A stretch of 63,774 nt of DNA, the filler included, from Candidatus Methanoxibalbensis ujae (GTDB lineage Archaea; Halobacteriota; Syntropharchaeia; Alkanophagales; Methanospirareceae): assembly GCA_026134085.1 (NCBI GenBank). It is 4 parts of 4 records of this genome, joined end to end, with 100 filler letters (N's around TTAATTAATTAA, not from the genome) between each part and the next. Parts side by side here need not be neighbours in the genome. Positions count along the whole stretch, not along the records: positions 61,440 to 63,774 come from JAOQIN010000083.1; 3 more parts are not named here. One strand, 5' to 3'. Under the pieces are notes generated by a model. The model was not told the origin of the DNA. It was given only the letters and a program-made list of their open reading frames with translations, and searched no databases. Numbering within the stretch: the first letter of the stretch is position 1; each line of letters opens with the position of its first letter. A program made the position numbers and the translations under genes. Positions 61,440 through 63,774 of the stretch are shown in pieces.

Positions 61440-61516
61440 GGAGGGCGTCCCTGCCCTCCGTTTTCGTTCATTTTTTCCACCATAACCCTTAAAAAGCGAA
61501 AGGACGAATGGTAAAG
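61440..61516 (+). repeat. 77-nt terminal direct repeat (assembly circularity overlap), copy 1
   Basis: Exact match to 63698-63774. Confidence 0.97.
61488..61495 (+). promoter_or_regulatory. Possible TATA box for the coat-like gene
   Basis: CTTAAAAA about 30 nt upstream of the GGAGGTGA SD and ATG 61536. Confidence 0.4.
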
Positions 61517-61535
61517 CGTGGCGGGAGGTGATAAA

Positions 61536-61883
61536 ATGAGGCGAAAAGCGAACAAAATGAGGTCGTTTTTGAAAAAGGCGAAAGAAATCCTCTTGCACAA
61601 AAGCAAGGGTTTCAACGACATGGTGTATATGGCGACGGCGATAATTTCAACGGTTATCGTTGCGATGATTGGCGTCTATATTTCCGCCCAAATCTACGAT
61701 GTGATGAACCTTGAACCCGACAGTCCATTTCAAACGGCGATGCAAGGAGCGATAAACATTATGAACACGACCTATCCGTTGCTCGTTGTTGTCGCTATTG
61801 GCATCATAGCGGGCATCGTTATGAGCTATTTGCTCGGTGGATTCGGTGTTGCAGGAGGAAGCGAAAAGCAAAAGGGACAATAA
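61536..61883 (+). CDS. Putative major coat protein (two hydrophobic helices, class III-like leader) of spindle/rod-shaped archaeal virus type; pilin-like alternative
   Basis: GGAGGTGA SD; basic leader ending KSKG|F; hydrophobic helix 1, loop, NTT sequon, helix 2 YPLLVVVAIGIIAGIVMSYLL. Confidence 0.6.
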   Translation: MRRKANKMRSFLKKAKEILLHKSKGFNDMVYMATAIISTVIVAMIGVYISAQIYDVMNLEPDSPFQTAMQGAINIMNTTYPLLVVVAIGIIAGIVMSYLLGGFGVAGGSEKQKGQ

Positions 61884-62010
61884 ACGCTGAACACTACCGC
61901 CTACCGCCTAATCGCCCTTACTGGATTGTGAGGGGCGAAACGGATACGCCCTGATTTCCGATTTTTTCGCCTTCAGGGTCGGTAAAGGTTCAAATCCCCT
62001 TTCGGCAACC

Positions 62011-62026
62011 GAAATATATTTAAATA
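62011..62026 (+). promoter_or_regulatory. BRE/TATA promoter upstream of the HTH gene
   Basis: GAAATATATTTAAATA about 45 nt before ATG 62072. Confidence 0.6.
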
Positions 62027-62071
62027 AGGGCGAAAGTAGGGAAAGGAACGATAATAAGGGTGAAAGGTGAA

Positions 62072-62611
62072 ATGGAGACGAAATTGGCGGAATTGGAAAG
62101 GGAAAAGGAAAGGGAAAAGGGCGAAAGGGTGATTACCGTCCAAGTTCCCGTAGAGGTTCAACGGTTCAGGCGTTTAAGCGTTGAGGAACGAGTGGAAATT
62201 GTCCGAAAACTCTACTTTGACGAAGGTTTGACCTATGACCAAATCGCAAAGGTTCTCCGTATAAGTCCCCGTGATATAGCGAAAGCGGTAAGAGGCGAAA
62301 AGATAACAGAAACCGAAGCGGACAAGTTAAGGGCGGAAATACGGGAATGTAAGCAAAAGATAAAGGAACTGGAAGAGCGATTAGACCGTGCTTCAAGGTT
62401 CATAAGGGCGACATTCGCCCATTTTACCGTTGAATATAGCGACCTGTTCGGCTCGGAAAAGGTAAAAGGCAAACTCTTTGTCTTTTGTCCCTATTGTCGC
62501 AAACTCGTCCATTTGACCTATAAGGAAGTTCCAACGCCTGAGTCGGAAAAGGAAAGGGAAAAAACGGTTAAAATGTGGGTGTGCGAAAAATGTGGCAGAA
62601 TACCGTTCTGA
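62072..62611 (+). CDS. HTH-coiled-coil-Zn-ribbon DNA-binding protein
   Basis: AGGTGA SD; HTH LYFDEGLTYDQIAKVLRISPRDIAKAV; heptad segment; CPYC...CEKC. Confidence 0.75.
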   Translation: METKLAELEREKEREKGERVITVQVPVEVQRFRRLSVEERVEIVRKLYFDEGLTYDQIAKVLRISPRDIAKAVRGEKITETEADKLRAEIRECKQKIKELEERLDRASRFIRATFAHFTVEYSDLFGSEKVKGKLFVFCPYCRKLVHLTYKEVPTPESEKEREKTVKMWVCEKCGRIPF

Positions 62612-62963
62612 CCTTTGACCTTTTGTCTATGTCTAAGGGCCCGGGCGATGAACTATATAATCCCCCCCTTTTCCCCCCCTTAAATCCGCCGATTCTCCAG
62701 GGGGGAGGTATTATATGTCTTGGGCGACCTCTTCCTTTGACGAGAGGGGCATTTCTGTGCGTCTCATGCGATTTTTTTCGGGGGTCACGGACACGAAAAA
62801 CTCGGCTCACAGGGCGTTTTCGCAAACCCCTCGCCGTATTACTTTTTCGCCCTTTCGTAATACCTCATGGTCGCCTTACTCGCCCTTGCGAAAGGGAGGT
62901 GATGGAAGTGGAAGCGTCGTAAGGGCGTAAGGCGACGAAAAAAAGGCGGGAGGTGATGGAGCC

Positions 62964-63443
62964 GTGTCTGTTTGGGAATTGGACAAGTCGGAACTTATAA
63001 CTTTCGGTCAGCGACGGGGATATGCGGTGAAACTCTACGAATACTCGTTCAGAGGTCGCAAGGGTCGCTTTCTGACGATTGAGCAGTATGAAGCGATGCG
63101 AGATGACTATCTCGGCGAGTATATCAACCGACGAAAGTCGCAGGTTACAGTTCCAAATGCGGAAATAGCGAGGCGAATAGCGAGGGAACTATTTTATTTC
63201 GCCGAACAATTGGAGCAGTCGCAGGGCGACAAGGGTCAATTGTCCGCTGACGAAGAGCGAGACATAAAGGCACTTGTATCGGACTTGCTCGGTGAAAGGA
63301 AAATGAACGAAAACGGGGCGGTGGAACCGCCCCAAAATGAACGGAACGAGGAACAGAACGATGAACAAAGGACTTCGTTTCGCCCCAAAGTGCATAATAG
63401 ACCGCCTTCTGAAAGTTCCACTGGCGAGGAGGGAGCAGATTAA
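62964..63443 (+). CDS. Hypothetical protein, possibly PC4/PUR-like ssDNA-binding with acidic disordered tail
   Basis: GGAGGTGA SD 7 nt before GTG; beta-beta-beta-beta-alpha pattern rich in aromatic/basic residues. Confidence 0.55.
   Translation: MSVWELDKSELITFGQRRGYAVKLYEYSFRGRKGRFLTIEQYEAMRDDYLGEYINRRKSQVTVPNAEIARRIARELFYFAEQLEQSQGDKGQLSADEERDIKALVSDLLGERKMNENGAVEPPQNERNEEQNDEQRTSFRPKVHNRPPSESSTGEEGAD
63300..63344 (+). promoter_or_regulatory. Hairpin motif copy A (candidate strand-specific replication/priming site)
   Basis: AAAATGAACGAAAAC-GGGGCGG-TGGAA-CCGCCCC-AAAATGAACGG. Confidence 0.65.
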
Positions 63444-63684
63444 GGAGGTAGTCCATGACCCCGACGCATCACACTTTCAGAGGACTTGGGTCGTCGGAAC
63501 GCTTGCATTCTGGGGCTACTCATACGAAGAGGTCGCAGACATTCTCATTAAGCACTGGAAAGAGGGACACTGCGAGACATGGAAGGACTTTTCGCCCAAA
63601 GAGACAAGGCGACAAGTGGAATGCTGGTTCAGGAAATTCGGTCAAAAGGTCGCAGAGAAGCGAAAACGGTATCTCGGTCGTTAG
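63361..63684 (+). CDS. Stand-alone primase large-subunit CTD / PriX-like helical protein
   Basis: FAPKCII.RLL...SHFQR..V...L...G.S.EEV..IL...KDFS.KETRRQVE parallels PriL-CTD FPPCI..LL...H..R..L..FL...G...EI...PDF....TRYQV. Confidence 0.65.
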   Translation: MNKGLRFAPKCIIDRLLKVPLARREQIKEVVHDPDASHFQRTWVVGTLAFWGYSYEEVADILIKHWKEGHCETWKDFSPKETRRQVECWFRKFGQKVAEKRKRYLGR

Positions 63685-63687
63685 TAG

Positions 63688-63732
63688 CCGTTCATTTGGA
63701 GGGCGTCCCTGCCCTCCGTTTTCGTTCATTTT
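63688..63732 (-). promoter_or_regulatory. Hairpin motif copy B, inverted (candidate strand-specific replication/priming site)
   Basis: Minus strand AAAATGAACGAAAAC-GGAGGGC-AGGGAC-GCCCTCC-AAATGAACGG. Confidence 0.65.
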
Positions 63733-63774
63733 TTCCACCATAACCCTTAAAAAGCGAAAGGACGAATGGTAAAG
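63698..63774 (+). repeat. 77-nt terminal direct repeat, copy 2
   Basis: Exact match to 61440-61516. Confidence 0.97.

Follow-up and report, generated by a model that had tools for sequence, protein, structure and literature searches.

A 2,258-bp mini-circle binned with Candidatus Methanoxibalbensis ujae encodes a predicted stand-alone primase-helper protein between mirrored hairpin sites

The window analysed here is a stretch of 63,774 nucleotides made of contigs from the metagenome-assembled genome (MAG) of Candidatus Methanoxibalbensis ujae, joined by N/TTAATTAATTAA spacers. The element under study is the last of these contigs (61440-63774), which corresponds to contig C82 of the MAG (86 contigs, 1.99 Mb, 89% complete). 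It carries four open reading frames (ORFs), all co-oriented on the + strand, two hairpin sites named A and B and a conserved non-coding block named region X. Its + strand is purine-rich (GC skew +0.146, AT skew +0.126). The features are the following:

61440..61516, no strand assigned: left copy of a 77-nt terminal direct repeat, 100% identical to 63698-63774.
61536..61883, + strand: ORF1, 115 amino acids (aa; alternative GTG start at 61518), with two hydrophobic helices.
62011..62030, + strand: B recognition element (BRE)/TATA-like promoter element (CGAAATATATTTAAATAAGG; CGAAA-TTTAAATA) upstream of ORF2, conserved in 5/6 relatives with ORF2.
62072..62611, + strand: ORF2, 179 aa from its ATG (183 aa from a GTG at 62060), with weak Pfam helix-turn-helix (HTH) matches.
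62638..62963, + strand: region X, a non-coding block that precedes ORF3 and is conserved in every unit aligned.
62964..63443, + strand: ORF3, 159 aa, conserved in the family core.
63300..63344, + strand: site A, AAAATGAACGAAAAC-[8-bp G+C stem, GGA loop]-AAAATGAACGG, inside the ORF3 linker (inverted repeat I2).
63337..63684, + strand: ORF4, 115 aa, predicted to be helical.
63688..63732, - strand: site B, AAAATGAACGAAAAC-[GGAGGGC...GCCCTCC]-AAATGAACGG, just after ORF4 and spanning the circle junction.

The two copies of the terminal repeat lie 2,258 bp apart, giving a circular unit of 2,258 bp in which the repeat is an assembly overlap, and an end repeat of this kind was found in this contig alone among the 86 of the MAG. 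Three runs, each belonging to a different study, yielded one Logan contig apiece that crosses the junction at which position 63697 is followed by 61440 ('goes back 2258'): 621 bp long in run X1 (possibly the source sample), 394 bp long and from a diverged variant in run X3, and 2,285 bp long in run X9, where it is a circular permutation with ~190 differences (about 8% diverged). Because the junction recurs in independent Logan assemblies, the unit closes on itself. The contig is thus confirmed as a genuine circular element of 2,258 bp, as a preliminary description of this DNA had proposed from the exact repeat and its spacing. The mean k-mer depth of the element contigs in run X1 was ~846-912, and a tblastn search of the MAG found no second copy of the four element proteins.

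A metagenome scan recovered 15 related loci, each a whole contig of 1.7-4.5 kb, and the comparisons below cover these 15 contigs and the window element (16 loci). Six clusters of ORF3 homologues were found in a collection of 5.8 billion proteins, on contigs of 841-4,276 bp. Several of the related contigs have exact or near-exact terminal repeats of their own:

L003: exact terminal repeat of 123 nt, unit 2,315.
L010: exact terminal repeat of 108 nt, unit 1,618.
L011: exact terminal repeat of 123 nt, unit 1,749.
L017: exact terminal repeat of 123 nt, unit 1,991.
L004: near-exact terminal repeat (155 nt at 99%), unit ~1,804 bp.
L014: near-exact terminal repeat, unit ~2,101 bp.

Three contigs of 4.1-4.5 kb (L007, L008 and L009) consist of two differing units placed head to tail with no other DNA, the join falling in the ORF4/site-B region that the units share. 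Such contigs could be genuine co-integrates or multimers, or else the assembly may have walked through a repeat. Chromosomal or large-virus flanks were absent from all related loci. The preliminary description had considered that such gene blocks might occur solely inside larger viral genomes, and no related locus was found within a larger genome. Every unit holds a conserved core of ~1.1 kb, made of region X, ORF3, ORF4 and the hairpin, and the remainder varies. Group 1 (L001, L003-5, L010 and L011) carries ORF2. Group 2 (L014-17 and one unit each of L007-9) has in its place a C2H2 zinc-finger/coiled-coil protein and two soluble proteins, its cargo being solely soluble and of DNA-binding type, and further units carry an AbrB-like protein as cargo. 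DNA searches of PLSDB and INPHARED returned no related DNA. Scans of IMG/VR with ORF1, ORF2, ORF3, the family alignments of ORF1, ORF3 and ORF4, and P0023 (a distant ORF4 relative described below) gave no match, nor did contig scans of the GTDB species representatives with the ORF3 and ORF1 alignments. The family most likely consists of mini-replicons of ~1.6-2.3 kb from hydrothermal and sediment metagenomes, either archaeal plasmids or plasmid-like satellites. Positions 1-14 of L010 are one mismatch from the Nextera mosaic end (…TATAAGAGACAG), and the 108-nt repeat and the ends of this contig may be partly adapter-influenced.

Sites A and B share the architecture 5'-AAAATGAACGAAA(A/G)(C/G), a G+C-rich stem of 7-9 pairs with a purine-rich loop of 3-6 nt, and AAATGAACG-3', and have invariant ATGAACGAAA and ATGAACG flanks in common. 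The two sites flank ORF4 and are on opposite strands, and the start codon of ORF4 is the ATG within the 3' repeat of site A. Across 17 distinct site sequences the flanks were invariant and seven differing stems occurred, every one of them perfectly complementary. The calculated DNA folding energy was -10.4 kcal/mol for site A (z -5.5 against shuffles) and -8.5 kcal/mol for site B (z -4.6). Extra ATGAACG/CGTTCAT copies are present in some units.

This arrangement recalls the IncQ plasmid RSF1010, of which the element is about a quarter in size. According to the available text of PMC8567376, leading-strand replication of RSF1010 starts at ssiA and ssiB, a pair of inverted 40-nt hairpins that lie on complementary strands and are recognised by RepB', and the helix bundle of RepB' is essential for dinucleotide formation. 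In both cases two hairpin sites of ~40-45 nt form an inverted repeat on complementary strands, and a protein of the primase helix-bundle type, predicted in the case of ORF4, is encoded beside them, the RepB' bundle being the best fold match of ORF4. Unlike RSF1010, the element has no catalytic domain of an archaeo-eukaryotic primase (AEP), no RepA helicase and no RepC iteron initiator in Pfam and PHROG scans, and its setting is archaeal-type (TATA/BRE promoter, PriL-like sequence signal). By analogy, sites A and B look like priming signals. These scans and inspection of the 16 loci revealed neither a HUH Rep nor an AEP catalytic domain, helicase, integrase or packaging ATPase, in agreement with the preliminary description.

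ORF4, which lies between the two sites, had been given a start at an ATG at 63455 preceded by AAGGAGGT. That frame is open in all loci, but its variable sites by codon position (17/34/27) show a non-coding substitution phasing, as against 27/17/34 in the frame of 63337-63684. Since the phasing fits coding in the latter, the 63455 start is in the wrong frame, and the Shine-Dalgarno (SD)-like string before it is not conserved in relatives. SD motifs had been reported on all four ORFs; SD-like GGAGGTGAT/GGTGA motifs do stand upstream of ORF1, ORF2 and ORF3, and the SD and ATG ascribed to ORF4 open a non-coding frame. No sigma-70-type promoter was found in the element (1.8 expected by chance).

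The AlphaFold2 (AF2) model of ORF4 is all-helical, with four or five helices (predicted local distance difference test score, pLDDT, 79.6). Its top fold match (VIA) was the RepB' helix bundle (3h20 residues 200-307, Z 6.0, 92 aligned), and the matches at Z 4.0-4.6 comprised the PriL Fe-S domain, NrS-1 and two pRN1 helix-bundle entries (6di2 PriL Fe-S domain, Z 4.6; 6a9w, 4.5; 3m1m residues 275-370, 4.4; 6gt7, 4.0). Profile searching of 1.84 billion representatives yielded 29 relatives. Pfam DNA_primase_lrg (PF04104) was matched by 11/30 aligned members of the ORF4 family, all in one region (profile about 114-185), P0017 being the sole member above the gathering score (25.3 bits, cut-off 22.4), and no other Pfam family was matched by more than two members. 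When aligned by hhalign to PriL of the MAG, the ORF4 family matched residues 263-319 of PriL (E 1.8e-4), in the segment H..R..L..FL..G...DYD..T.YQ, and the ORF4 profile also found PriL-sized frames (340-406 aa) in no fewer than 20 genomes. In three distant relatives (P0023, P0033 and P0037) an ORF4-type domain is fused N-terminally to an AEP-like domain bearing VxDIDS (DxD), KFSGxxGFH and LxRxYSIN, which we read as AEP motifs I-III; these domains match Pfam LigD_Prim-Pol/DNA_primase_S at E 0.05-0.18 only. No AEP catalytic domain is fused to or beside ORF4 in the element or in any of the 16 loci. ORF4 is also without a four-cysteine 4Fe-4S pattern, C19 and C79 being invariant and C63 nearly so in the close family and none being conserved in the wider family.

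PriCT-1, PriCT-2, the C-terminal domain of PriL (PriL-CTD) and PriX are homologous, PriCT-1 being the helix bundle of RepB' and pRN1, and the 'InversePrim' family has PriCT ahead of the primase domain, as stated in the available part of Kazlauskas et al. 2018 (PMC5862659). Like these domains, ORF4 is helical with a PriL-CTD sequence signature, and it has relatives fused to or beside AEP domains in the 'InversePrim' order. It differs from PriL-CTD, PriCT and the PriX of Sulfolobales in standing alone on a replicon without any primase. It also has no four-cysteine Fe-S pattern, a feature of PriL-CTD that PriX and PriCT-1 do not have either; in the same part of that paper PriCT domains are presented as fused to the AEPs of mobile genetic elements and the term 'stand-alone' does not occur. 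As judged from sequence profiles and the fold model, ORF4 is a stand-alone helical protein related to the PriL-CTD/PriX/PriCT primase helix bundle, and a primase-support activity is predicted. The PF04104 matches, the PriL alignment and the three AEP-like fusions bear out its earlier designation as 'PriX-like'.

In two related genomes an ORF4-like gene follows a conserved gene pair encoding ~355 and 73 aa (L038:7764-9750 and L039:7922-9856), and in L041 an ArdC-like anti-restriction gene adjoins an ORF4-like gene. These contexts suggest integrated or plasmid-type elements with the same primase-helper domain. The 355-aa gene upstream was considered as a candidate AEP and rejected, as it is not AEP-like.

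The second core protein, ORF3, has variable sites with third-position bias (39/28/57 by codon position). Its residues 1-86 are predicted, at a pLDDT of about 90, to form four antiparallel strands and a long helix (DSSP strands 2-8, 18-29, 32-46 and 53-63, helix 66-86; ββββα). They are followed by a variable linker and by a C-terminal tail overprinted on ORF4. In the overlap, variable sites fall 4/3/9 in the ORF4 frame and 9/4/3 in the ORF3 frame; the invariant C-terminal tail of ORF3 is therefore a by-product of the constraint on ORF4. The 'invariant' M-N-E and N-E-R residues of ORF3 are ATGAACG-type DNA repeats. Its invariant acidic and tyrosine residues are E5, D7, E40, E43, D47, D48, Y25, Y42 and Y49. 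The fold matches, all with middling scores, were Borrelia Pur-alpha (3n8b, Z 7.0, 74/74 residues), AcrIIA22 (7jta, second best, Z 6.8, root-mean-square deviation 2.2, 55/56 residues), a PC4-like protein of phage T5 (4bg7, Z 6.5), a Burkholderia PC4 homologue (5a4n, Z 6.3) and human PC4 (6ycs, Z 5.2). The T5 protein was also the best Foldseek match (E 0.028). These superpositions are within the range of common arrangements, and an Atlas search gave an uninformative best score of 0.78. No relevant Pfam family was matched at E<=10 by any of 14 members, and no ORF3 homologue was found in 400 other genomes of the phylum.

We predict from the fold model that ORF3 has a PC4/Pur-alpha-like, nucleic-acid-binding fold. 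It had been called a single-stranded DNA-binding (SSB)-like protein: nucleic-acid binding is retained in the prediction, at middling Z, but the fold is not that of an OB-fold SSB. ORF3 resembles PC4/Pur-alpha-like proteins in predicted topology, with fold matches over the whole domain, but stands outside their sequence families, and a role as a conserved core protein of a replicon would be new for them. There was no Pfam or PHROG match to a HUH or rolling-circle Rep in ORF3 and no conserved histidine in its residues 1-110. A cryptic AEP was also considered and rejected: ITFGQRRGYAV locally resembles SGxRGYH, but hhalign gave 0.1% against the AEP fusions and 0.35% against PriS of the MAG, and no AEP occurs among the 50 fold matches listed. 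Complex prediction of ORF3 (1-110) with ORF4 (17-115) gave no verdict (score 0.00).

Upstream of ORF3, region X contains a C7-T4-C7 tract, a near-invariant hairpin followed by a T-run and, in addition, a stem showing compensatory changes; double changes occur in 6/34 predicted pairs. Its 71-aa and 115-aa ORFs were rejected as genes, with a stop in L004/L005, divergence in group 2 and indels not in threes. Region X is treated as non-coding because its frames are not conserved. Rfam searches of six loci gave one sub-threshold chance match and left region X unmatched. It may be part of the origin, a leader of ORF3 or a small RNA. At 62654-62700 the C7-T4-C7 tract is followed by a G-run (GGGGGGAGG), and this segment could adopt unusual DNA structures.

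The other two proteins lie outside the core. ORF2, confined to group 1 and present in 6/16 loci, consists of an N-terminal HTH, a coiled coil and a C-terminal CxxC...CxxC zinc ribbon. Its Pfam matches (HTH_38, E 2.5e-4, plus HTH_23 and Sigma70_r4) lend weak support to the HTH assigned earlier, and we read ORF2 as cargo encoding a regulator or DNA-binding protein.

The ORF1 family is large and tightly conserved, with 115 clusters of homologues at 58-83% identity; almost every one lies on a contig of 0.5-5.6 kb, the few exceptions being on contigs of 8-15 kb. The PHROG family phrog_16261, annotated 'virion structural protein', was matched by 35/36 ORF1-family members (best E 4.8e-6), and the nearest named Atlas clusters were VP1-like (0.85) and His1_capsid (0.83), which are below 0.9 and are leads only. 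Pfam returned generic membrane noise only, and a tblastn search of the phage collection gave no match at E<=10. SSV1 VP1/VP3 are assigned to other PHROGs than phrog_16261, and hhalign of the ORF1 family against SSV1 VP3 and His1 VP21 gave probabilities of 0.5% and 0.65%. The description of ORF1 as 'coat-like' is partly supported, by the weak PHROG and Atlas leads. ORF1 is alike SSV1 VP1/VP3 and His1 VP21 in being small with two hydrophobic helices; unlike in those viruses, Pfam and PHROG scans found no other virion or morphogenesis gene beside it on the element.

ORF1 is intact solely in the window element. In L005 and L006 its start coincides with the contig end, and it is absent from other family members, including the circles L004, L010 and L011 and all group-2 circles. 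In L003, a sister circle otherwise 86% identical, the homologue is split into pieces of 75 and 40 aa (464-829). Runs X1 and X2 also contain the centre of the gene (61602-61831) in further contigs, which are 531-3,262 bp long and have unrelated flanking DNA; ORF1 therefore circulates among differing small elements within the same samples. The sole genomic homologue of ORF1 (one among 400 genomes) lies in a lower-GC island of ORFans (L046:6000-20000, on contig C1 of genome G392), which encodes large unknown proteins (517, 569 and 1,015 aa, of which the 1,015-aa one matches a PHROG) and ends in a tyrosine integrase with a zinc-ribbon tail; this island is a candidate provirus. ORF1 lies outside the family core and is cargo that can be exchanged. 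Its product is a small membrane protein with two helices, and its links to virion structural proteins are weak.

Taken together, these results lead us to propose that the element is a circular dsDNA plasmid-like mini-replicon that borrows the primase catalytic subunit of its host or of a helper, a proposal to which we give about an even chance. The replication module would be the ~1.1-kb core running through region X, ORF3, site A, ORF4 and site B. Sites A and B, as the same hairpin signal on complementary strands, would act as single-strand initiation sites like ssiA and ssiB of RSF1010. ORF4 would supply a primer-initiation and template-recognition module in trans to host PriS or to the primase of a helper element; the MAG encodes both PriS and PriL. 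Host polymerase would perform leading-strand synthesis outward from each site, moving away from the ORF4 segment to the left at A and to the right at B. ORF3 would bind or melt the origin or coat the exposed strand, ORF2 would regulate expression or copy number, and ORF1, which would be dispensable for the replicon, may aid transfer. The circles combine paired sites with a predicted helix bundle and lack a catalytic domain, a helicase and an initiator; action of ORF4 in trans with a host or helper AEP is the most economical model. The preliminary description had found the gene set impossible to match to a described element, which was overstated, as ORF3, ORF4 and the paired hairpins would make up a coherent replication-type module with an analogue in IncQ plasmids.

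Several observations weigh against this proposal. ORF4 has no named catalytic partner, and the tie to the host is one of binning. RSF1010 needs a helicase (RepA) and an initiator (RepC), both without counterpart in the element, and the run data used were assembled Logan contigs. The top Z scores of ORF4 (6.0) and ORF3 (7.0) are in the range that the tool calls 'middling'; ORF4 by itself had no Pfam match and nothing significant in Foldseek (none with E below 3), and the hhalign probability of its family against PriL is 49%. The links of ORF1 to a virion-protein PHROG and to a provirus-like island leave room for the lifestyle of a virus satellite. Finally, site B read on the + strand resembles a hairpin-plus-T-run terminator after ORF4 and could be simply that; the terminator reading does not account for site A, because site A has no gene to terminate.

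The main mechanistic rival is a rolling-circle replicon, in which the PC4-like ORF3 would nick one strand at or near a hairpin and ORF4 would assist priming of the displaced strand at the second site. We consider this unlikely. Hairpins with flanking iterons, as seen at sites A and B, are typical of origins of rolling-circle replication (RCR). The genes are co-oriented on the purine-rich strand, a bias that is also explicable by co-oriented purine-loaded genes, and ORF3 has invariant acidic and tyrosine residues. AcrIIA22, its second-best fold match, is a metal-dependent plasmid nickase relying on an acidic loop residue, according to the available text of PMC8545432. However, AcrIIA22 is without the C-terminal helix and nicks without sequence specificity, and ORF3 shows no HUH or Rep_trans signature, nor any Pfam match in the 14 members. 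Two equivalent sites on opposite strands moreover fit two-strand priming better than a pair of double-strand and single-strand origins (dso/sso).

A different kind of alternative concerns the way of life of the circles. As virus satellites or 'infectious plasmids', those with ORF1 could be packaged in particles or vesicles whose formation would draw on ORF1, on a helper virus (spindle-shaped or pleomorphic) or on both, which we hold to be rather improbable and treat, together with a vesicle-borne lifestyle, as a minority reading. The two-hydrophobic-helix layout of ORF1 is that of small archaeal capsid proteins, and the phrog_16261 matches, the Atlas leads, the island ending in a tyrosine integrase and the 115 clusters on mostly small contigs point the same way. 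Against this stand the hhalign probabilities below 1%, the placement of SSV1 VP1/VP3 in other PHROGs, the Pfam noise, the lack of any match in IMG/VR or the phage collection and of any other morphogenesis gene, and the fact that most family members have no ORF1, or a split copy in L003, and are still circular. The same points apply to an autonomous ultra-small virus, as had been suggested, in which four genes would suffice for virion and replication. The ORF1 leads and the small closed gene set are in its favour, but sister circles have a broken ORF1 or none, the same replicon is found in circles of 1.6-1.8 kb that lack ORF1, and the cargo of group 2 is soluble and of DNA-binding type, which makes such a virus very unlikely. 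Hardly more credible is an assembly artefact, in which a tandem repeat would have been collapsed or the contig would be a piece of some larger genome. The 77-nt overlap has the length of a common assembler k-mer and some relatives were assembled as two-unit contigs, yet the junction was recovered in three runs, once in a diverged permutation, four relatives have terminal repeats of other lengths (108 and 123 nt), foreign flanks occurred in 0/16 loci and the MAG holds no second copy. The borrowed-primase replicon could also be extended further: ORF4, as a surrogate of PriL-CTD/PriX, would capture PriS and aim it at the two hairpins, ORF3 would open or nick the origin, and the members with ORF1 would be packaged, giving the smallest archaeal replicons yet and the smallest virus-like or satellite archaeal dsDNA element. 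This extension we find quite doubtful, below either of the readings by rolling circle or satellite.

The tie of the circle to the MAG is by binning only, as had been noted from the start. None of the 128 spacers in the six CRISPR arrays of the MAG (contigs C4, C12, C13, C24, C57 and C78, with one common 29-30-nt repeat) matches any member of the mini-circle family, the longest partial match being 19 nt with 2 mismatches, so that the spacer check put forward earlier gave no link. Across 67 further genomes of the order the element was not found; a DNA search covering 68 genomes gave only matches of 23-36 nt (E 3e-4 to 8e-3), treated as chance. A 2,438-bp contig, equal in length to L003, encodes a sister-element protein whose record is assigned to 'Candidatus Bathyarchaeota archaeon', and the record of one ORF1 homologue is assigned to 'Candidatus Geothermarchaeota archaeon'. 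Strong ORF4 relatives (E<=1e-32 to the family profile) were found, among 401 genomes searched, only in the MAG's own family (5/54 other genomes of that family) and in no other family. They show 25-42% identity to ORF4 by blastp, with E down to 4e-17, and lie on contigs of 5.7-82 kb in ORFan/ArdC-type contexts. This enrichment is a hint, drawn from sequence similarity, that would point independently to the MAG's family as host.

Small archaeal plasmids include RCR types of ~1.7-3.5 kb in haloarchaea and Thermococcales and the pRN1 family, and the fusellovirus satellites pSSVx and pSSVi depend on helpers. Like small cryptic archaeal plasmids and these satellites, the element is a small circular archaeal extrachromosomal DNA; unlike the mini-circle family, they encode a recognisable Rep (HUH) or prim-pol/helicase. 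In the literature searched, no account of circles carrying such a gene set turned up. The available part of the ANME-1 virome paper calls unclassified circular elements 'most likely plasmids', and its supplements may bear on prior description. The parts are known in kind: a small plasmid, a PriCT/PriX-type domain, a PC4-like fold and ssi-type hairpins. Their combination, a replicon with a stand-alone primase helix bundle and a PC4-like protein as its sole replication-specific proteins, appears to be undescribed.

The ORF1 family, with its 115 clusters, indicates a large pool of 2-5-kb circles outside IMG/VR and the plasmid and phage collections, and the finding of sister elements in bins of differing phyla is a warning on the binning of small circles. 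If the proposed model is true, these circles would offer a natural minimal system for start-site choice by a primase helix bundle, which is now studied with RepB', pRN1 and PriX, and a possible compact vector backbone for uncultured or hard-to-transform archaea. For the family itself, it would mean that a replicon needs just a specificity module for a borrowed primase and the sites that this module recognises, with no polymerase, primase catalytic domain, helicase or nickase of its own required.

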